In this document: positions 4,433 to 37,089 of the stretch, in pieces
Position numbering within the stretch: the stretch's first letter is position 1
Layout of the letters: each line of letters begins with the position of its first letter
Virus record (IMG/VR): IMGVR_UViG_2579778573_000005
Direction: 5' to 3' (one strand)
Origin: a virus
Taxonomy: Duplodnaviria > Heunggongvirae > Uroviricota > Caudoviricetes
Length of the DNA stretch: 44,005 nt
The notes under the pieces: model-generated
What the model saw: the letters and a program-made list of their open reading frames with translations, nothing else
Told to the model about the DNA's origin: nothing
Databases searched by the model: none
Made by a program: the position numbers and the translations under genes

Positions 4433-5935
4433 TTAGACTGTTTCTTTAAAAAGAGAGGCCAGAGCTTCAACTGTGTAATCATTATTAATGCGGTACATTA
4501 ACGTAATTGTTTGTGCCGGGGATTTCGGTCCAAAGTCAACATTAATATAAAGATTACCAGCGGCCAGACTTTCTTTTGTATTTAACTCTTCATCTAACCA
4601 CGCCCGTCCTCCGTTAATCGCGCCCTGCTCCTCTAATTTATGCAGATACGCGTTTATCGACTCTACAACGTCTGTTCCGAGGTGCAGGTCTATCGGGCGA
4701 TCAATAAAATCGGTCATCATTGCCCGGGCTATTGAATCCTCAATTACGTCAGCTGTCCGACGAACGCATTCAAAGGACCATTGGGGACTGAGGCTACACA
4801 GATAGTTACCCCAGTGTCTGAATCCATCATAGCGAATAATTGTGCTGACCTGGCTGGCGTTCAGCAGATTTGCTGTGCAGTTCGTTTCACCGATTATAAA
4901 ATCATCGACTTGTTCGAGTCCTGTAATTCCGTAGATATTTTGATTCGATTTGCTCCACCAAAACCCTTTTTCGTTATCAATTCTGGCTCGTAAACCAGCA
5001 GCGATAGCTGAATACGGACGAGATAAACCACTAACATCACTCGTAGAATAAACACGAGGGCGCAGAATTTCCATTCTGCCGCCGTACCTCTGACGACGAT
5101 TTACAACGTCAGCAGGCGTAGCGCCTCGCGGTGAATCGATATATCCAACGCCTCGTAATTTATTTGTCACCACTTCAAGTTGTTCTGCAATATAATCGTT
5201 AGCACTATAATCTGGAGCGATTAAAATTCTCGGCGTTACTTGATTTATTTGCGCAGACGTCAACAATGCGTTAATCCCGTTAACGACGTTCTGCCGCATT
5301 TTTGTTTCGTCGCTGTCCTCTTCGACGCGGACAACAACAATAATGGCATCCTCCTGATTTAGTATTTCAGATACAGCGGGAGGAAGGGTTCCAGACCCAC
5401 CGAGCAATCCAGCTTTTTTTTGACTGCCTGCAATTAACGTCGGAACATTATATTTGAACGATTCGTCTTTACCACCGGATAAATTTGTTGGGGGGAGCGC
5501 GAATACAGTCCCCGTTCCTGCGTGATCACCACCGAATGTGACGTTAATATATTCTCCAATCTGGAGTCCTTCTTTATACTGCTGGTTCTGATCGTACATT
5601 TTTGACGGGGTCATGGCACCGTCCGTGATCATTGTTAATTTTCTCGAACCGTCGGGCAGTGTGCTGTATCCTGGAGTTGCTACATTCCCGTTAATTCCCA
5701 AATCAACAATTTCAACAATCCAGTTGTTTCCGTCGGCCCCTGGCATGACAGTCGAAAACTCAACAAGATTGTCTGCGAGCTCTGATCCCCATAATAGTGA
5801 TGCACAAGTTGGGTAGCTGGAATCGGGAGCAGTACCAACAATCCCAATCACGGAAATATCTACTGTGTTGATCTCTTTTGTGCCGTCGTCGTATTCGAGC
5901 GTGCGAATACCGTGTAAAAAATTAGTTACGCTCAT
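4433..5935 (-). CDS. Contractile tail sheath protein (P2 FI-like)
   Basis: Track ORF 500 aa; N-terminal region resembles P2 FI sheath. Confidence 0.8.
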   Translation of the reverse strand: MSVTNFLHGIRTLEYDDGTKEINTVDISVIGIVGTAPDSSYPTCASLLWGSELADNLVEFSTVMPGADGNNWIVEIVDLGINGNVATPGYSTLPDGSRKLTMITDGAMTPSKMYDQNQQYKEGLQIGEYINVTFGGDHAGTGTVFALPPTNLSGGKDESFKYNVPTLIAGSQKKAGLLGGSGTLPPAVSEILNQEDAIIVVVRVEEDSDETKMRQNVVNGINALLTSAQINQVTPRILIAPDYSANDYIAEQLEVVTNKLRGVGYIDSPRGATPADVVNRRQRYGGRMEILRPRVYSTSDVSGLSRPYSAIAAGLRARIDNEKGFWWSKSNQNIYGITGLEQVDDFIIGETNCTANLLNASQVSTIIRYDGFRHWGNYLCSLSPQWSFECVRRTADVIEDSIARAMMTDFIDRPIDLHLGTDVVESINAYLHKLEEQGAINGGRAWLDEELNTKESLAAGNLYINVDFGPKSPAQTITLMYRINNDYTVEALASLFKETV

Positions 5936-9433: not shown

Positions 9434-10305
9434 ATATGAGTGTGTCCGTTATACGTTGTGCGGACTTCAGTTATTGTGCCTTGTCGGTCCTGCACCTCTT
9501 GCCCTGCTAACACACTACCGCGAGTTGTGATATTACCTGTTCCACCGTTATCTCCAGTGACAGAAATATCGTTACGGAATGTCGCTAATTTATCTACTAC
9601 TAATGTCTCGGTAATATGCGTTGGACCAGCTAGTGTTATACCACCCGGAGCCCACGCGCTGATTGTTTGAGCTGTCAGCGATATTCTGTTCGCAGCAGTA
9701 ACACTAACAGAACTCGTTGCTATAACGTTCACTAAATCAGCATGTGCGTTAATTGTATCTGTCGCTGTGACATTAATAATATCAGCGTCTGCGTTAATTA
9801 ATTTCCCACCATGGATATTAACTACATTTTCGCTATTAATAGTAACATCTGCGCGTCCAAATATTTCTATTTCAGACTCACCGAGTATTTTTACCACGCC
9901 GTCCGGTACGCCCTGCCATGTCAGAGTGTGATTTTTTGTGTTATACGTCATCGTAGCCCCGTCACAGTATGCAGTGACATGATCATGGGGGTCATTGCTT
10001 GGCGGAGCTTTGTCGTCAATGTGCAGCCCGAGCATAACTACACCGTTCCGCGTATCCCCACCCTCAGAAACAACAGTAACGGGATCGCCCACTGATGGTG
10101 CGCTCCAGTCGACGCGTTCTGAGGTGGCGTGAGTAAACCACTGCAGCCAGCCTGACTGGTGTTCGCCACCAAATGAGACTCGGCAGCGTGGAGGATTCAT
10201 TTTAACTGCAGCTATCGTGCCGCGTTTAACTGCGTCACGCAGCCTGCGCGCGTTCTCCGCTGCAGCATATTCATCGTCCGATTGGGCCATAATAGTCGCC
10301 CTCAT
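9388..10305 (-). CDS. Baseplate spike protein V-like
   Basis: Track ORF 305 aa; N-terminal region and C-terminal His-rich tip resemble P2 gpV. Confidence 0.8.
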   Translation of the reverse strand: MRATIMAQSDDEYAAAENARRLRDAVKRGTIAAVKMNPPRCRVSFGGEHQSGWLQWFTHATSERVDWSAPSVGDPVTVVSEGGDTRNGVVMLGLHIDDKAPPSNDPHDHVTAYCDGATMTYNTKNHTLTWQGVPDGVVKILGESEIEIFGRADVTINSENVVNIHGGKLINADADIINVTATDTINAHADLVNVIATSSVSVTAANRISLTAQTISAWAPGGITLAGPTHITETLVVDKLATFRNDISVTGDNGGTGNITTRGSVLAGQEVQDRQGTITEVRTTYNGHTHICPDGETQQPNQPMA

Positions 10306-10807: not shown

Positions 10808-11484
10808 AATCGTTTACCTGTTTTTGGGTCTACGTGGACATTACCTTTCACGCGACCGCGCAAATCTTTCTCAAAAAAGCCCATAAAAACAGGGCCAATG
10901 TTTTCAAAAATATAATCATCGATAGCATCCTCCAGCGCGTCGTGCACAGGTACGCGAGCCTCTTCGATTCCTCCGCGATCCAGTCGAATCCAGACACTTT
11001 TCGCACCGTAGCGTTTCGCTACGAATGAATCGGGCCAACTCATCATCGCCAGCCCTGCACTTTTGGGTGTAAAAGTTGCCCCTCTAGCGCCTTTTTTGGT
11101 TTTCAAAAACAGGCCGGTCTCAAGATCGCGAGGCTGTTTTTGCCTCCGTGGATTTTGTAATCGCCCCTTTAGCTCAGATACCCGGAAATCATTCAGACCG
11201 TACCAGAGCTTGGCGCTGCTCAGGTCTCCTGCCCCTTCTTTTGTAAAATTACGGCGCTTAATGAACGGCTTGATTCGTTTATCTACGGCCTTATGATTTT
11301 TAGCTGCCAGTGCAGTCAAAATCATTCCTGCTGAAATTCGGTGCATATGTTTTGCAGTTCGGTTCAGCGCCCTGTTGTATACCATTAACATTTGATGTTG
11401 CGTCGCGCTGATTTCGACTCTGAGCTGCTCCAGCGCCGAAACATCGATATCGAACATCTGCGCGTTACTACGTAAATCGGCCAC
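10804..11484 (-). CDS. Putative virion morphogenesis / tail completion protein
   Basis: Track ORF 226 aa; operon position. Confidence 0.4.
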   Translation of the reverse strand: MADLRSNAQMFDIDVSALEQLRVEISATQHQMLMVYNRALNRTAKHMHRISAGMILTALAAKNHKAVDKRIKPFIKRRNFTKEGAGDLSSAKLWYGLNDFRVSELKGRLQNPRRQKQPRDLETGLFLKTKKGARGATFTPKSAGLAMMSWPDSFVAKRYGAKSVWIRLDRGGIEEARVPVHDALEDAIDDYIFENIGPVFMGFFEKDLRGRVKGNVHVDPKTGKRL

Positions 11485-21389: not shown

Positions 21390-21425
21390 TGGCCTATTTT
21401 GTTCGTTTTTGCAAGCATTATACGC
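21390..21425 (-). promoter_or_regulatory. Candidate late promoter / Q-utilisation region
   Basis: Minus strand TATAAT at 21417-21422 immediately after the Q-like gene stop and upstream of the holin gene. Confidence 0.4.
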
Positions 21426-22089
21426 AAACGTCGTCTAAATGGTTCTGATAATGATGCAAAGTTGCAAGAAGTGCCACTTCATCAAGTGCTCTCACCGCCT
21501 CTTTCATTCCTACCCAGTGCAGGGAGTATGTTTCGCACCAGGTGGAACGAGAAACCGACAGCATTCCTGCTAGGGTAGATCCGGCCATCTCCTTAAAATC
21601 CTCGCGTTTATTTGCTGCTGCGACCGCCTGCACGGACAACCACACCAACGAAAGCAGGCGCTTAACTACTTTTCTCTGAGTTGACGCGGGGATGTTTCCT
21701 TTATAGCGACTCCAGACAGCCTCACAAATAGCTGTTTGGTGTTTGAATGCCAGGTTACCACCGTAGCAATAACGCAACCACGCTTGCTGACTTGCATCCA
21801 GCGAGTTCACAGAACGCCGCCAGGATGAATCAGCAAATTCAAAATCACTCATCGGCGGCGCGGGGCGACGTCTGCTGAAACTTTCCAGAGCGTAAACTGG
21901 CGTAACCAGAGCATCAACGGTCCGGTCCTCCAGCTGCACACGGTGAATATGTTTGCGTGGGTATGCGTTTTTGTCTGCCGGTGGGTGCTCACACAATGCT
22001 TCCAGTTGCCCCTTAGAACCACCAGACAAATCCCGCAATGCAGCGCGCAGTTTTATGCGGGTATATTCCAATAAATACTCGTTACTCAT
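21418..22089 (-). CDS. Putative late antiterminator Q-like protein
   Basis: Track ORF 223 aa; between a ybcO-like gene and the lysis cassette. Confidence 0.45.
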   Translation of the reverse strand: MSNEYLLEYTRIKLRAALRDLSGGSKGQLEALCEHPPADKNAYPRKHIHRVQLEDRTVDALVTPVYALESFSRRRPAPPMSDFEFADSSWRRSVNSLDASQQAWLRYCYGGNLAFKHQTAICEAVWSRYKGNIPASTQRKVVKRLLSLVWLSVQAVAAANKREDFKEMAGSTLAGMLSVSRSTWCETYSLHWVGMKEAVRALDEVALLATLHHYQNHLDDVCV

Positions 22090-22382
22090 CAGATAAACTC
22101 CTCATCGCGCCAGATAGCCAGTGTTCTGAAAACTCCCTCAGCGTGCATCAACAACAATGAGTCGTGCTCGTAATCCGTTTTTGTACGTCCGTCGATGGCA
22201 TCGTGACACGCACTGCAGGCGATAGCGCCCTGCATATCGTGAGGTTTGATGGCTGTGCCGCACGTTCCGGCGAGACGATAATGAGCCAGTACGCTGGTTT
22301 CAGGATTGTGATTGCACACACCGGGGATACGCACAGTACAAGCGCGACTGCGTGCAGCTTTTCTCAGGTCGATTTTTTTCAT
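22089..22382 (-). CDS. DUF1364 family protein (YbcO-like)
   Basis: Track ORF 97 aa; resembles E. coli YbcO (RIPGVCN.NPETSVLAH, IACSACHD motifs). Confidence 0.6.
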   Translation of the reverse strand: MKKIDLRKAARSRACTVRIPGVCNHNPETSVLAHYRLAGTCGTAIKPHDMQGAIACSACHDAIDGRTKTDYEHDSLLLMHAEGVFRTLAIWRDEEFI

Positions 22383-22975
22383 GATGTGTAATCCAGCAGC
22401 TGCGCGGCGGCATTTTCAGCGGCCTCCTGAGAGGCAAATGTGCGGAACAAAATATAATTCCACAGCACATCTAAAACGGCTGAATACAGTTGACCGAACT
22501 CAAGATCGTCCATCGCTGCAAACGAGATTGAACGAGGTACGCGCATCAAACTGCCGTCTGGCATCTGATGAACGTCATAAAACCCAGCTTCCATAATCGC
22601 CCATGCGCGAAACGCCTCGAACGACTTCACCGCACTGATACTCCCCGCGCGCTTTTCCGACTCATCGAGAAGATACTGATCAGCCAGCTCTGCCATGACA
22701 TCACCGTGTCCACCGTAATACGCCAGTAACTTAACGTAGCCGTGAACCAGTTCGCGCTCCGCAGGAGAAATAGCCCCTCCGGACGGATGCCAGTAATCAA
22801 AGCCCAGGTTGAGAAGTGAGAAAAATTTACGATGAAACGCGGGATTACGCGCCTGTTTGAAATCTGCATACACAACAGCACCTGGTTTGACTCGTTCAGT
22901 CAACCAGCGTTGCGTGTCTGGTGTCGCGGGTATTAGCGAACCGCCGGATACCCTGATAAATGAATGCTGCGCCAT
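22379..22975 (-). CDS. nin-region protein (DUF1367-like)
   Basis: Track ORF 198 aa. Confidence 0.45.
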   Translation of the reverse strand: MAQHSFIRVSGGSLIPATPDTQRWLTERVKPGAVVYADFKQARNPAFHRKFFSLLNLGFDYWHPSGGAISPAERELVHGYVKLLAYYGGHGDVMAELADQYLLDESEKRAGSISAVKSFEAFRAWAIMEAGFYDVHQMPDGSLMRVPRSISFAAMDDLEFGQLYSAVLDVLWNYILFRTFASQEAAENAAAQLLDYTS

Positions 22976-23052
22976 GGTTAACTCCAGGTGGCGCGGCAGT
23001 GTTCAGAAAATGGTGCCGGGTGTTCAATCCAGCACCGATATTATACCGTGTT

Positions 23053-23232
23053 TTACGCGTCAGGGGGTGTAATAGTATATCCAGCTATTTCTGCCAACTC
23101 GAGAAACGCCATCAGGCTGGCAATCCGCTCATCATCGGTCAGAACACGCACACCAACGATGTGTCCGTCCTTACGCTTGATAACAGCCCGGCATGTTTCC
23201 GGTAGTTCGCCTATAGATTCTTGAATATTCAT
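23053..23232 (-). CDS. Small protein under a LexA box (candidate SOS-inducible antirepressor)
   Basis: 59 codons from ATG 23232 (track ORF extends to a TTG at 23253); G-rich RBS; LexA box 20 bp upstream. Confidence 0.45.
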   Translation of the reverse strand: MNIQESIGELPETCRAVIKRKDGHIVGVRVLTDDERIASLMAFLELAEIAGYTITPPDA

Positions 23233-23252
23233 GTCTTCCCCCCAATGCCACA

Positions 23253-23272
23253 ACCTGTATATTTATACAGTA
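23253..23272. promoter_or_regulatory. LexA (SOS) box
   Basis: ACCTGTATATTTATACAGTA = CTGT-N8-ACAG with AT-rich spacer, near-perfect match to the enterobacterial consensus. Confidence 0.65.
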
Positions 23273-23383
23273 TTTTATGGCATTTGTCATAACGCCAAAT
23301 ACAATGAGGGAATAATGAACAATTATATTCACGTCGTGAATTTTATTAAACGGTTTTATAGGGGATTAAACCGTTTATGGTCA

Positions 23384-24268: not shown

Positions 24269-24502
24269 ATGGGTACGTTAGGCAACCAGCCGTGCAGAAG
24301 TCGTTATGAGTTCGATGATTTTAATTTAGCCAATCGAGCTGCGGCTCTTACTAAGTTAGCAAAAGAAACTGGTGTATCGGTGGATACCTTAATCAAACTT
24401 GAAATTGCTATGCAACTGAATCGGCTCAACTCCATCCTTATCGAAAACGGTGACAAGATGGACGAGAATCTGGCAGGTATTGGCGAGATACTGCAGAAGT
24501 GA
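24269..24502 (+). CDS. Small putative HTH DNA-binding protein
   Basis: Track ORF 77 aa; GAGGAA RBS; helix-turn-helix-like LTKLAKETGVSVDTLIKLE. Confidence 0.35.
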   Translation: MGTLGNQPCRSRYEFDDFNLANRAAALTKLAKETGVSVDTLIKLEIAMQLNRLNSILIENGDKMDENLAGIGEILQK

Positions 24503-24900: not shown

Positions 24901-25389
24901 ATGGCTACCAACCCAAGAGAGCACGCCCGGCGAGTGCTGGACACGTTCTGGTGCGGGCGTGGTTTCCCTGTTGATCCAGCGAAAATTGCTCACGACATGG
25001 GATTAGATGTTTTTATTACCGATCTTCCTGGGAAAGTTTCTGGCGCACTGATTAAACAAAAAGATCAAGATCCAGCGATCTTTCTAAACAGTGATGACAA
25101 CAAAGTTCGTCAACGTTTTTCATGTGGGCATGAGTTGGGGCATTACATCGCCCGGCAAGCATCGCATAGCGATGAATATGAGTACGTTGATTTACGTGGC
25201 GAAACCGCAAGCGCCGGAACGCATCCTGATGAAATTTTTGCAAACAAGTTCGCAGCAGAACTTCTGATGCCGGTAGATGAGGTCAGAAAACTGCACGCTG
25301 ACGGTCAACCAAGTTATATAATGGCGCATTATTTTGGCGTATCTGACGATGCGATGACTTATCGTTTAAAGAACTTGAGGTTGGGGTAA
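24901..25389 (+). CDS. ImmA/IrrE-family Zn-metallopeptidase (COG2856/DUF955-like)
   Basis: Track ORF 162 aa; HELGH (HEXXH) motif and downstream EIFANKFAAELLMP motif typical of ImmA/IrrE; GGAGGAG RBS. Confidence 0.8.
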   Translation: MATNPREHARRVLDTFWCGRGFPVDPAKIAHDMGLDVFITDLPGKVSGALIKQKDQDPAIFLNSDDNKVRQRFSCGHELGHYIARQASHSDEYEYVDLRGETASAGTHPDEIFANKFAAELLMPVDEVRKLHADGQPSYIMAHYFGVSDDAMTYRLKNLRLG

Positions 25390-25398
25390 CGCTTTAAA

Positions 25399-26004
25399 AT
25401 GCCATCGGATGACGATTTTAACAGCCGTTTCAAACAGGAAGTAGCACGCAGACTGAAGGATTCCCTCAACCTACACCGTCAGTTAGCAGAAGAGGTTGAG
25501 CCGGAGGACGATGAAACTCCGGTTCAGTCTCCTGACGAAGCTTCACCTCAGCCAAAGGTTTCGCACGCCCCCAAAAAAACGGCTGTCCGTATTCGCGGAA
25601 TAGCCAGAAAAAGAGCTGCCGAAGCTCGCAAAATGGCTGTAGCTGCGTCTAGCAAAAGAATTCCAACTGCTACACCCTCTCAACAAGTCACCCGTACTGA
25701 GAGTAAAATCTTGACCGAGTTCACATCTGTGAAACAGGTGAATTCACTTGATACCGAGCATGAGCGCAAACAACTCAACAACAAAGATTTTGAAGCAGAA
25801 ATCGCTCTAAAAAAACGATACGGGAAATGGTTCCTGATTATCCTTGCTTTCCAACTTCTGATAATGAATGGTGTATTTATTGCCGACGGCGCAGGTAAGC
25901 TGGAATTTGAGGATTTAACACTACAGTTGTACATGGGCGGTACTTTGACAGAGGTATTCGGCCTCGTGCTGGTCGTGACAAAATACCTTTTTAAACGCAA
26001 GTAA
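25399..26004 (+). CDS. Membrane-anchored protein, unknown function
   Basis: Track ORF 201 aa; 10 bp after the peptidase gene; charged N-terminal region, two C-terminal hydrophobic helices. Confidence 0.6.
   Translation: MPSDDDFNSRFKQEVARRLKDSLNLHRQLAEEVEPEDDETPVQSPDEASPQPKVSHAPKKTAVRIRGIARKRAAEARKMAVAASSKRIPTATPSQQVTRTESKILTEFTSVKQVNSLDTEHERKQLNNKDFEAEIALKKRYGKWFLIILAFQLLIMNGVFIADGAGKLEFEDLTLQLYMGGTLTEVFGLVLVVTKYLFKRK
25933..26004 (+). repeat. Direct repeat copy A (last 24 codons of the membrane protein gene)
   Basis: 72 bp, ~90% identical to 30609-30680. Confidence 0.8.
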
Positions 26005-26466: not shown

Positions 26467-27165
26467 TTATATTTTTCCATATTTTTTTCCGTCAAATCGA
26501 ATCATGCCAGGATCAAGAAAATTAATTAAATCGATTAACGCGTGCTGTATTCTGATTAGCCTTTCTTTATAAATTCCGATATCTCTTGTCATATTTATCA
26601 CTTCATTGTTTAAATCTAAAAAAAATGGCTCATTGATAAAGCAATTTTCCTTTGTGAAACTGCCGTAACCTATGCAATCAAATCCAGTATCTGTTGATAT
26701 CAGCATCTTTTCTGCAATAGCTCTCTGCTCTCCTATGAAAAACATAAAATACTGACCAAAGACGTCTGTTTGGATTAATGAGTTAATATTGTTCTGTAAT
26801 CTAATAAACTCCCTCATTTTTTTATTTTTTTCTAGGCTAAGGTATTGAATGTCTATGCGGGCAGCTTCTGTCCATGCAAAAAACTGGGAAAAAAGAAAAA
26901 CAGTATTGTTGATAACATAATCTTGTTGGCGCTTATTCCCATTATGATAAAACTCTTCAATGAACCCCAATTCTAATATATTATAAATACGGCTTTGTAA
27001 GTCTGAAGCTGAGCGAATTAACGGTTCAATATAGTACTGATGTTTTCTCCTTACATCCAGTGATTCATTGAGCTTGTTTATTCTATTCTGATTATAAGTA
27101 GATATAGCAATAGAGATTATAGCTATTGCACCACTAATAAAGCTTGAAATTAATGCCGTACCCAT
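26467..27165 (-). CDS. AT-rich gene for N-terminally membrane-anchored protein, unknown function (accessory candidate)
   Basis: Track ORF 232 aa; one N-terminal hydrophobic helix; markedly lower GC than flanking phage genes. Confidence 0.55.
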   Translation of the reverse strand: MGTALISSFISGAIAIISIAISTYNQNRINKLNESLDVRRKHQYYIEPLIRSASDLQSRIYNILELGFIEEFYHNGNKRQQDYVINNTVFLFSQFFAWTEAARIDIQYLSLEKNKKMREFIRLQNNINSLIQTDVFGQYFMFFIGEQRAIAEKMLISTDTGFDCIGYGSFTKENCFINEPFFLDLNNEVINMTRDIGIYKERLIRIQHALIDLINFLDPGMIRFDGKKYGKI

Positions 27166-28305
27166 CTAAAAGTCCTTTGATTCTTGCTTGGTTAACAAAA
27201 TGACATAATTTTATTTAATGCCATAACAACTTAACAATATATCATAATATGATTATTATGGTGTAGCTTGTCGCATCTACGCTCCATTACAAACAGATGT
27301 AAGATATAACCTATATGTTTTAGCCAGCAAATTCGAAAGCATTCAAAGTAGTCTCATCGAACTCTCGAAACCCTATGTCTTCGGGTATAAAATATTTAAA
27401 TCCATTTGCATAATATCGACTCATGTTTATTATATTCTCCCCATTCACCATTAAGATTTGACATTATTTTCAACAATCGGTTATTGCAAGATTGAAATAT
27501 ATTTTTACTTGACACAATATTCCATGTAGCCCAGCGATTCGACTTACCCCCAACTATACGGACAATCTAAATTAAATCGATGATTTTTTGATACATTCTC
27601 CTCTCTCCATTACTTTATGTTTTTGTTCCCCAAAAATACCTTGCTCTCTAAAAAATAATTGTTCTTTAAGTTCAAAATCGAGATCTACATGAGCGTTAGA
27701 TACAAAGCTAATATGTTGAAATGTCTTTCCCCCCCCCATAACGGCATTGTTATCTAAACTATGTTACACAAATATAATATTACCCTTTCAACGTAATCCA
27801 AGAATAAGATTAATGCCATTATATATATCATAAATATGATATTTTGTATATTTTTATCATTTAGCCTTGATTGTACTAGGTGTACTCTCAACGAAGTAGG
27901 GAAAGTCTGTTCCTCGCTCACAGCTGCCCTTCAGTAAGCGAAAAAATGCCTACTCGGTGCCATATACAGCCATTGTTATTAACAGCAGGGAATAATTCAA
28001 AACTGAAATTAAATATCTACCTTTTACAGTAGAAATAGTTCCTCCAGGACACTATCCATTGCCGGGCACAATCACTCGGGGTATAACGATATAAAATATG
28101 TTCATGATAGTGCAGGTTCGTATATTAAGTTCAGCAGCGAAAACATGCCTTACAGGTTTCCGGTTTTGGGAGCGTCGTTACAGGATCCTGCGCATACCGT
28201 TCCCATCTGTTGAATTAAAGGTTTCACAGCCTTTGCCGATATCACCTTTTACCTTACCTGTGATGCGTTCAGTGCTGAAGTGGTCAACAAAAACTGGCCA
28301 CCGAG

Positions 28306-29453
<1,148 letters not shown>

Positions 29454-29606
29454 TATGGCACCTGTGTTGTTCTGAGGTGAGCATATCACCTCTGTTCAGG
29501 TGGCCAAATTCAGTAAACCACTTCATGCTCAGCGTTGTTTACTGTAGCTCTCGGGACTGATTACAGACCGCGTCTTAAAAACCAATCCTTACTCTAAAGG
29601 GAATTC

Positions 29607-30704: not shown

Positions 30705-31541
30705 TCAAAATGCTGAATTAGCAACGGATATAGCCGACTTTTTCCCCATTACCATCAATTTATCCAGTGTCATACTTCGCAGATTGTCGCTGTGGATCAC
30801 CAGATACCCTGCCCGCTCAGCGATCTCTTTGAAAGCGTCAAAGGTCATCAGATGTTCGCCTTTGGCAACATGGCGCATCCCGGTCACTTTTCCATTTTTG
30901 ATAGTGGTGATAAAAGAAAAATCTGGAATGGTTGGGTGATTTTCATCGAGTAGCAGGCAGTGGATGTATTCAATCGCCTCTAACATTTGCGTCTGTGACA
31001 GTTGTTCTATGTGAGAGACGGCGAAGCGTTGATGAATCATGGTGTAGGCATCGGGATACATCATGCCTTTCTTGCCGACCAGTATATTAACGGCATCACG
31101 CAAGGGAGTACGGTCATCGGTAGTTGTACTCCGCCTCTCTGGACGCTGGCTAAAATAACAATCTTCCAGCTTTTCGAAAACTTCCCAGGCCTGTTCTGTT
31201 TCCAGCATTTTGGCATGGCGAGCTGCGCCGCGTTCTGTCCAGAGAATGAGGGATCGGGTATGTTTAGCAACTGACTGACTATCTGTCAGTCTGTTTTTGA
31301 AGTCGCGTAATTCATTACCTTCCAGCTTAAAAAAATGCTTTCCTACGACAAATCTGGCGATGTTGCGCTTGAAGTTTTGCTGGATACCATTTACTTCCGT
31401 GCCATACAAACTGGCAAGCAATTCAGTAGTGATGACGGGAAGTTGGTTATGATGTAGCGGAGAAAGGGATTCCGCAGATATTTGGACTGTCATCGCAGTG
31501 GCCTCACTTAGTGTTTTTTTCATCACCACCAGCGACGCCAA
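30705..31541 (-). CDS. Phage antirepressor-like protein (ORF6N-type N-terminal domain)
   Basis: Track ORF 278 aa; start uncertain (internal ATGs at ~31523 and ~31493). Confidence 0.45.
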   Translation of the reverse strand: MASLVVMKKTLSEATAMTVQISAESLSPLHHNQLPVITTELLASLYGTEVNGIQQNFKRNIARFVVGKHFFKLEGNELRDFKNRLTDSQSVAKHTRSLILWTERGAARHAKMLETEQAWEVFEKLEDCYFSQRPERRSTTTDDRTPLRDAVNILVGKKGMMYPDAYTMIHQRFAVSHIEQLSQTQMLEAIEYIHCLLLDENHPTIPDFSFITTIKNGKVTGMRHVAKGEHLMTFDAFKEIAERAGYLVIHSDNLRSMTLDKLMVMGKKSAISVANSAF

Positions 31542-31765
31542 TCATCTGGTGGTGAGCTGTGCAGGGTTGGCGTAACCGGCTAAGTGAACCCGGCGCTTCC
31601 ACAGAAGCCCCCACACAGCCCACCATAATGCGAATGTGGCCGTGCCTAACACATAAAAAAACCGCTAACGCGGCTATGCGTCACTTAGATATCCGGGACG
31701 CCAATCCCGGCAACCGATTTTGCGGCTGCGCGGAAACTATAGCCCCGGACTTTTTCTAAGTCAAT

Positions 31766-31987
31766 TCAATCAACTTCAAACCTCCGGTGTTCACATTCCA
31801 TACACTCAACGGGAACATCATCGCGATGCAAGTCCACATATCCGACCCGCTTATACAACTCAATAATGTCCGGTAACGTGACCAGATGTTTTTCCGGTTC
31901 CAACACCTCAGCCCGGGTTACTTTGTAATCTGAAATATAGAGCACTATCCGCCCGTTCCGTGGTAACTCCAGTTTATCGCCAAACAT
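31766..31987 (-). CDS. Hypothetical small protein
   Basis: Track ORF 73 aa; operon context. Confidence 0.3.
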   Translation of the reverse strand: MFGDKLELPRNGRIVLYISDYKVTRAEVLEPEKHLVTLPDIIELYKRVGYVDLHRDDVPVECMECEHRRFEVD

Positions 31988-36346: not shown

Positions 36347-36577
36347 TTAAGCTGCTTCCGTTTTAGGCAAGCTGTCATCTGGGTTTGGGTAAAGATCCGG
36401 TCTAAGATCATGAGGGGTCACGCGCCATTCAAGAGCTTCAGATGTGCGCAAAACCTCTTCACCGGGAACCCGTCCTTTGAACCAGAGGCTTACCGTTTGT
36501 GGTTTTTTCCCTAATCGCCGCCCTAACTCGGATTGACTCATTACGGAAAGAATTTTGTCTTGCAGTTGTTTATCCAT
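36347..36577 (-). CDS. cro: Cro-like HTH repressor
   Basis: 76 codons from ATG 36577 with AAGGAG RBS (track ORF extends to a TTG at 36613); HTH QSELGRRLGKKPQTVSLW; divergent from the repressor gene. Confidence 0.6.
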   Translation of the reverse strand: MDKQLQDKILSVMSQSELGRRLGKKPQTVSLWFKGRVPGEEVLRTSEALEWRVTPHDLRPDLYPNPDDSLPKTEAA

Positions 36578-36602
36578 ATGGACTCCTTGTGTCCGCGTCA
36601 TC

Positions 36603-36642
36603 ATTACAAACAATAACTGTAATTACAAATTATATTTGCAAT
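36603..36642. promoter_or_regulatory. Rightward operator region: two overlapping ATTACA-N9-TG(T/C)AAT sites plus pR -10
   Basis: ATTACAAACAATAACTGTAAT (36603-36623) and ATTACAAATTATATTTGCAAT (36622-36642); minus-strand TATAAT at 36629-36634. Confidence 0.5.
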
Positions 36643-36675
36643 GCTCCCTACAATTAAACCTTGTATCCTTACGGT

Positions 36676-37089
36676 ATGAACACAAAAACGAAAAACATGG
36701 CTTTTGCTAGCCGACTACAACGGATTCTAAAAGACTTAGGCTGGTCTCAATCTGAGTTAGCTCGCCATATTGGGGTTACGGCTCAATCAGTTCAGGCATG
36801 GTGTAATGGGGTAACTCCAAGAAAAGATAAATTAGACAAGCTAGCAAAAGTGACCGGATACCCTGTTCATTTTTTCTTCATGAATGAAGGGGAATATTTG
36901 GATGAATCCACACTACACCCGGGTAATTACAATCAAGAACTAACCCCGCAAGAACAGGCTCTACTGCAACTATTCAGAGGACTGCCTGAGAGCGAAAAAA
37001 ATAAATTAATCAATGAGCTAAAAGAAAAAAGAGAGCACTTCGATCTACTGCTAAAAGAACTACTTGAAGCCAAAAACCAGACAAAATAG
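36676..37089 (+). CDS. Prophage repressor (CI-like, HTH only, no S24 peptidase domain)
   Basis: Track ORF starts at TTG 36661; first ATG 36676; HTH WSQSELARHIGVTAQSVQAW. Confidence 0.65.
   Translation: MNTKTKNMAFASRLQRILKDLGWSQSELARHIGVTAQSVQAWCNGVTPRKDKLDKLAKVTGYPVHFFFMNEGEYLDESTLHPGNYNQELTPQEQALLQLFRGLPESEKNKLINELKEKREHFDLLLKELLEAKNQTK

Follow-up and report, generated by a model that had tools for sequence, protein, structure and literature searches.

A candidate GfoA/Rem-family small antirepressor gene downstream of a LexA box in an Escherichia coli prophage

The closest described systems in which host LexA governs a prophage through a small antirepressor are the Gifsy prophages of Salmonella. 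Induction of Gifsy-2 depends on a locus under LexA control (Lemire, Figueroa-Bossi and Bossi 2011, PMC3121763). From between dinI and irsA, this locus encodes a small protein that binds the repressor and strips it from DNA without cleaving it (PMC3121763). The GfoR-GfoA pair forms an A2B2 complex (PMC3121763). Deletion of dinI has no effect on Gifsy induction (PMC3121763), so that dinI belongs to the Gifsy operon and not to the mechanism as such. These antirepressors can also act in trans on non-cognate repressors, as FsoA does on GtgR and GfoA on GfhR (PMC3121763). In a second described system, Rem of the Qin prophage relieves repression by DicA 165-fold (Ragunathan et al. 2023, PMC10448788); the same work reports the inducing signal of Rem as unknown (PMC10448788).

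The locus considered here lies in a 44,005-nucleotide stretch of DNA, the window, that derives from an E. coli prophage with lambda-like head genes, P2-like contractile-tail genes, and a lambdoid Q/lysis region; its integrase gene adjoins pgsA. The features at and downstream of the LexA box are as follows.

23253-23272: LexA (SOS) box ACCTGTATATTTATACAGTA, read on the gene strand as TACTGTATAAATATACAGGT; from a consensus search and a PWM scan
23290-23285 (-35) and 23267-23262 (-10), minus strand: putative sigma-70 promoter, ATGACA-17 nt-TATAAA, inferred by eye
23236-23243, minus strand: Shine-Dalgarno sequence GGGGGGAA, 4-11 nt 5' of the ATG, with a GGGGG run that is kept in relatives
23053-23232, minus strand: candidate GfoA/Rem-type small antirepressor gene of 59 codons, protein MNIQESIGELPETCRAVIKRKDGHIVGVRVLTDDERIASLMAFLELAEIAGYTITPPDA; from the ORF and homology
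23012-23036, minus strand: hairpin GGUGCUGG-9 nt-CCGGCACC followed by AUUUUCU, from RNA folding, between the small gene and the DUF1367 gene
22379-22975, minus strand: DUF1367 gene, an irsA/STM1020 homologue (Pfam PF07105, E 6e-78), directly 3' of the small gene
22089-22382, minus strand: YbcO-family gene, downstream of the DUF1367 gene
21418-22089, minus strand: Q antiterminator gene, downstream of the YbcO-family gene

The small gene is thus not part of the immunity region; it falls between Q and the replication genes, directly upstream of the DUF1367 gene, whose product is 56% identical to STM1020 of Gifsy-2 (the irsA homologue). RefSeq annotates exactly 23053-23232 as a coding sequence for a hypothetical protein, WP_001025459.1, of which no mention was found in the literature searched. 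The protein has no match in NCBIfam, PADLOC, or a copy of Pfam that does not contain PF27490 and in which Rem itself likewise has no match; it matches only phrog_340, a PHROGs family of unknown function. An AlphaFold model of the 59-aa chain (pLDDT 90.6) consists of a helix, a β-hairpin, and a second helix. A PDB sequence search and a Foldseek comparison of the model with the PDB returned nothing meaningful, so the mechanism of the small protein gains no guidance from a solved structure. The hairpin that follows the gene is possibly a weak terminator; its z-score is just -1.2, and it was not called by a terminator scan.

The box at 23253-23272 is the sole LexA-like site in the window and is as strong-scoring as validated SOS boxes. 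CTGT-N8-ACAG occurs once in the 44 kb, and this bare core is unremarkable, with 0.57 copies expected per window and at least one in 46 of 100 shuffles. The full 20-nt consensus TACTGTATATATATACAGTA, allowing up to three mismatches, also has a single match, the box itself, and none of 100 shuffles yields any. An approximate PWM, built from 27 E. coli SOS boxes of the literature, assigns the box 24.3 bits, a score exceeded by just two of the 27 training boxes. The runner-up site in the window reaches 10.7 bits, and the best scores of 300 random windows have a mean of 11.2 and a maximum of 20.4 bits. Against a uniform background, the box scores 24.9 bits versus 24.0 for the experimentally validated Gifsy-2 box. 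Its end is 20 nt from the ATG (23232) of the minus-strand ORF, and no plus-strand gene is positioned to use it, the nearest starting at 24269. The original prediction, which had placed a near-consensus LexA box directly upstream of a 59-codon gene and proposed a PWM scan as a check, is therefore borne out as to both the box and its position.

The predicted -10 element, TATAAA, falls within the LexA box. The ATGACA-17-TATA(A/T)A arrangement is preserved in two related loci (L004 and L011) despite a different spacer sequence, and other lineages have a TTGCAC-17-TATA(A/T)(C/A) promoter adjoining the box. A promoter scan missed the element in the window because its -10 lacks the final T. Another promoter-like sequence, TTAATA-16-TATAAT (10 of 12 matches), is found on the minus strand at 23322-23349, ~50 nt upstream of the LexA box, and looks stronger than ATGACA-17-TATAAA; if it is active, LexA would need to act as a roadblock. 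The spacer of this upstream element contains a perfect palindrome, ATTCACGTCGTGAAT, at 23327-23341. Both hexamers are kept in relatives, the palindrome just partly. Assignment of the palindrome as an operator for the prophage repressor was dropped, as the immunity region contains nothing similar.

Profile searches were required to bring the family of the small protein into view. A word-indexed protein search with the small protein yields 7 close relatives, an exhaustive profile search yields 38 cluster representatives, nearly all of 55-66 aa, and a profile re-search extends the family to 89 proteins, mostly from Serratia but also from Yersinia, Salmonella, Klebsiella, Kosakonia, and E. coli. 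Most of these 89 carry a precomputed mark for Pfam PF27490, "Rem". The mark is lacking for the window cluster and its 73-76%-identity relatives and is present in most relatives at 35-50% identity. A GfoA-like sequence for direct comparison was obtained via the gfoA primers (Table S1 of Lemire et al., PMC3121763). The 5' primer locates 37 loci in a scan of viral contigs, and the 3' primer has no match in an exact scan of viral contigs. The product of the 37 loci is 82 aa long and initiated at a TTG codon, as described for GfoA by Lemire et al. (PMC3121763); its N-terminus, SNSALQK, and its C-terminus, RRLGYRVTPPSD, agree with the primers, and it diverges from GfoA of strain 14028 after ...PPSD. 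The family profile aligns with this GfoA-like protein at an hhalign probability of 97.1% (E 5.2e-11), and the window protein alone matches it by BLASTP with 33% identity over 51 aa (E 6e-10). The two also have in common a GY-x-(I/V)-TPP ending. Rem is not matched by the small protein in BLASTP and is recovered by profile methods, with hhalign probabilities of 94.1% for Rem itself and 94.9% for the Rem-family profile. By these alignments, the 59-aa protein is homologous both to GfoA, the antirepressor that LexA controls in Gifsy-1, and to Rem, the DicA antirepressor of Qin. No similarity of the small protein to GftA is found by BLASTP or profile methods.

The gene order places the locus with the same systems. 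In Gifsy-2, the order is LexA box, dinI, gftA, STM1020, ..., ninG, Q, and in a gfoA-type locus (L026) it is LexA box (25.6 bits), dinI, gfoA-like gene, DUF1367. The window has LexA box, small gene, DUF1367, which is the Gifsy arrangement minus dinI. The same operon occurs in Salmonella phage SPN3UB, with another Rem-like protein in the corresponding slot. GfoA and GfhA, of Gifsy-1 and Gifsy-3 (with repressors GfoR and GfhR), resemble the window in several respects: a homologous small protein, a LexA box of equal strength upstream of the operon, a slot that immediately precedes irsA/DUF1367 in the stretch from the replication genes to Q, and a short HTH-only repressor of the same family. They differ in that their operon is headed by dinI, whereas in the window, where no dinI-like sequence is found (tblastn best E 0.31), the box directly precedes the antirepressor gene. 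The window protein has 59 aa versus 82 aa for GfoA and lacks the N-terminal extra half-repeat of GfoA, Rem, and the SPN3UB protein; it is the minimal 59-aa form of the Gifsy/Rem fold. The hosts also differ, Salmonella for Gifsy and E. coli for the window prophage with its lambda-like head and P2-like contractile-tail genes. Rem (PF27490) shares with the window a homologous protein, a DicA-like repressor partner, and a nin-region location upstream of Q, but has 83 aa and an internal partial repeat, and the intact box is found in the window prophage. GftA of Gifsy-2 occupies the same operon slot as the small gene, with sequence similarity undetectable. FsoA of Fels-1, for which the sequence compared comprises the last 13 residues, taken from a primer, is a repressor-controlled, trans-acting relative.

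Conservation of the box was assessed in the genomic context of 11 other lineages of the small-protein family, in loci of 2-20 kb. In 8 of the 11, the small gene is preceded at 17-103 nt by the highest-scoring LexA site of its locus (22.3-28.5 bits), with second-best sites in these loci at or below 11 bits. The box-bearing lineages comprise two from E. coli (76% and 56% identity), three metagenomic or uncultured, and one each from Serratia marcescens, Salmonella, and Kosakonia. Across these relatives, the box is preserved while the flanks diverge. The remaining three, a Yersinia prophage, a P4-like satellite context, and a short contig, have no LexA box. Likewise, no LexA box is found at rem in K-12 Qin or in O157-type prophages, and LexA control is thus not universal in the family.

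Several individual loci deserve mention. In an E. coli prophage (L006, GCA_030013595.1), the box at 9965-9984, upstream of a 76%-identical small gene, has a 2-bp deletion within its TA spacer, giving CTGT-N6-ACAG and reducing the score from ~26 to 13; the IS insertions and split terminase of this prophage suggest box decay in a defective element. An O157-type prophage with rem (L018) has LexA-like sites at 11448-11467 and 2401-2420, of 22.4 and 21.5 bits, which map to the start of an N6/N4 methyltransferase gene and the inside of a DnaT-like replication gene, not to rem. In Stx1a phage Stx1_499 (L003), a 60-aa family member is encoded at 4977-5159 in the early-left operon (family HMM, 53 bits), and no LexA box is found near it. 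Other Stx-converting phages share this arrangement, and these phages also have a 218-aa product annotated as phage repressor protein CI. The position of the 60-aa member resembles that of FsoA in Fels-1.

Tum of coliphage 186 offers a second precedent for the logic of the locus, with AntC of N15 as a possible further case. In both phage 186 and the window, the LexA box overlaps the known or putative promoter and ends 18-20 nt before the start codon of the antirepressor or candidate antirepressor, and the repressor is of a non-cleavable type. At p95-tum, 18 nt separate the annotated LexA site from tum, and the site includes the p95 -10 element. The proteins themselves are dissimilar: Tum has 146 aa with a DinI-like C-terminal half, as compared to 59 aa and no DinI similarity in the window, and homology is rejected at an hhalign probability of 0.5%. 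The original prediction had invoked both Gifsy and Tum as precedents; the Gifsy comparison holds by descent, that with Tum by analogy only.

The presumed target of the small protein is encoded in the immunity region, which contains the following features.

36697-37089, plus strand: HTH-only repressor of the DicA/GtgR type, presumed target, from the RefSeq start; HTH_3, no S24
36347-36577, minus strand: Cro-like regulator, annotated by RefSeq, divergent from the repressor gene
36578-36696, intergenic: presumed operators, inverted repeats of the TTACAAA...TTTGTAA type, identified by eye

Pfam detects HTH domains only in the repressor and no Peptidase_S24 domain, in accord with the earlier claim that it is HTH-only. 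The length of 142 aa claimed with it depends on the choice of start, of which there are three: TTG at 36661 (142 aa), ATG at 36676 (137 aa), and ATG at 36697, the RefSeq start (130 aa). The protein aligns over its full length with GtgR of Gifsy-2 (33% identity, E 6e-23) and with DicA (32% identity, E 1e-17). Its best NCBIfam match is "transcriptional repressor DicA", at 72.4 bits under a cut-off of 101 bits. A C-terminal LF..LPESEK...L.ELL motif is common to the window repressor and the short DicA-like repressors of family-bearing prophages, in a comparison that covered all other prophages for which a small-family member and the immunity region were both captured.

The window encodes two further modules related to the small protein.

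31766-31987, minus strand: second stand-alone Rem/GfoA-like ORF, 73 aa, from the family HMM on six-frame ORFs (33.6 bits)
30783-30932, minus strand: Rem/GfoA-like C-terminal domain of the ORF6N protein (residues ~204-253; gene 30705-31541)

The 73-aa ORF (31987-31766) is absent from the RefSeq annotation (SK1144) and has a GGAGGG ribosome-binding site; beyond it, at ~31660-31680, is a terminator-like GCCGCGTTAGCGG with a run of seven T behind. The ORF6N C-terminal domain matches phrog_340 (E 4.6e-12) and the small protein (BLASTP E 5e-7, hhalign 96%), so the large and small antirepressor candidates share a module. A PWM scan of the window finds no LexA box at either the 73-aa ORF or the ORF6N gene. 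The latter had been set aside in the original prediction as an antirepressor-like gene without such a box, and indeed its best match, at 31409-31428 inside the gene, is at chance level (10.7 bits); the ORF6N protein nonetheless matters here, its C-terminal domain being paralogous to the small protein. In the early-right direction, both paralogues come after the replication genes, so their expression should await removal of the repressor. They could either boost induction or target other prophages in the way that FsoA of Fels-1 targets Gifsy-2, and FsoA is a possible model for these two paralogues without a LexA box.

The 600 bp surrounding the box and the small gene are present in 445 of 5,426 complete E. 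coli genomes (~8%), at ≥99% identity in 414 of the 445. The 100%-identical matches, among those listed, are mostly from human clinical isolates. For one of them, the "phage" record ON470624, neither the record nor the titles of the two papers naming it show induction; the record starts with a gene annotated as host yecA. Elsewhere in the prophage, a transposase ORF with rve integrase-core domains (28306-29124, minus strand) is found inside a stretch at ~27200-29600 that is ~1.25 kb longer than in the near-identical SK1144 prophage (L001), and which probably reflects an IS insertion. A 232-aa protein encoded at 26467-27165 (minus strand) has a weak PADLOC match to RTasTM, a defence reverse-transcriptase transmembrane partner (E 1.8e-5). 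Between the early and nin regions, a block at 24901-26004 (plus strand) encodes a metallopeptidase followed by a 201-aa protein whose sole match is an uncharacterised PHROG.

Considered together, homology to GfoA and Rem, synteny with Gifsy, and the box in 8 of 11 lineages favor the small gene as an SOS-controlled antirepressor candidate, the role proposed for it at the outset; each prediction of that proposal that computation could check is borne out. The 59-codon gene probably encodes a small antirepressor of the GfoA/Rem family from a promoter shut by host LexA. We infer from sequence that LexA binds the box, that the small protein interacts with a repressor, and that the prophage's own repressor is the target; SOS induction of the prophage would likewise proceed through the small protein. 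In the lysogen, LexA would occupy the box overlapping the -10/start region, the small protein would not be made, and the 130-aa HTH-only repressor would hold the early promoters off. DNA damage would activate RecA and trigger LexA self-cleavage, allowing synthesis of the small protein, which would bind the repressor, probably as an A2B2 complex by analogy to GfoR-GfoA, and take it off its operators uncleaved. Early transcription, replication, Q, and late gene expression would then follow. The comparisons support assigning the small protein, as a representative from E. coli, to the Gifsy/Rem class, in which small antirepressors under LexA control act on repressors of the DicA type.

Three other readings of the locus can be weighed against this one. 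The small protein might be SOS-induced and yet not be the inducer of this prophage, acting instead mainly in trans on the repressors of other resident prophages, or in some other SOS role, while one of its paralogues is the cognate antirepressor. The presence of three paralogous modules within one prophage is compatible with such a division, as is the precedent of FsoA on GtgR and GfoA on GfhR (PMC3121763). But the paralogues are downstream of a repressed early promoter and without a LexA box, and so cannot start induction from the repressed state, and in Gifsy-1 the cognate member is the one under LexA control; this explanation appears unlikely. A fortuitous, non-functional palindrome, with the small ORF expressed just as part of the delayed-early (nin-region) transcript, would be in keeping with the frequency of the CTGT-N8-ACAG core (0.57 expected per window) and with the promoter-like site upstream of the box. 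It is made extremely improbable by the score of the full 20-mer, far beyond chance, and by a box position kept across genera while the flanks diverge.

A protease-based switch has precedents in ImmR/ImmA, DdrO/IrrE, and CapH/CapP, and the window encodes an ImmA/IrrE-type metallopeptidase (24901-25389) that could in principle cleave the repressor, leaving the LexA-controlled gene as an accessory. The assignment of the peptidase is well founded (Peptidase_M78 E 7.7e-18; PADLOC capP E 2.4e-25), and the repressor is an HTH-only Xre-type protein. In a switch of the ImmR/ImmA, IrrE/DdrO, or CapH/CapP type, however, the peptidase gene would be expected adjacent to and co-transcribed with that of the HTH repressor, whereas here the two, both with plus-strand coordinates, are ~11 kb apart, the peptidase gene lying within a variable cargo block. 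Among its neighbours of 77 and 201 aa, Pfam reveals no HTH partner. In related loci (L004-L007), the cargo is different (GmrSD), with no Peptidase_M78 gene in the 10 kb read upstream of the box and small gene. Homologous repressors of Gifsy and DicA are, moreover, inactivated by binding rather than cleavage. Cleavage by the metallopeptidase is accordingly quite improbable, less so than the fortuitous box and more so than action in trans. The preferred reading remains LexA-gated synthesis of a small protein that would act on the prophage's own repressor.

The mechanism proposed for the 59-codon gene has been established since 2011, and its occurrence here would not surprise a specialist. The three-paralogue arrangement is the sole part that goes beyond published work. 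A tentative extension, which we regard as possible rather than probable, is that the prophage uses three repressor-binding modules under two controls. The 59-aa protein would be the LexA-gated trigger, while the 73-aa ORF and the C-domain of the ORF6N "Ant" protein would be gated by the repressor and would lock in induction or cross-induce other prophages. If so, the C-domain of such large ORF6N antirepressors would share its repressor-binding fold with the small Gifsy/Rem proteins, and the repressor-gated modules would hit DicA-like repressors of co-resident prophages, leading to cross-induction in multi-lysogenic ST131-type strains.

For the family, the comparison bears on the inducing signal of Rem, since intact relatives usually appear to have the Rem/GfoA-family gene wired to LexA. 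For E. coli, the proposed switch would consist of a single 59-codon gene with its 20-bp operator, and it yields a prediction of how DNA-damaging antibiotics such as fluoroquinolones would induce a prophage carried by ~8% of complete genomes.
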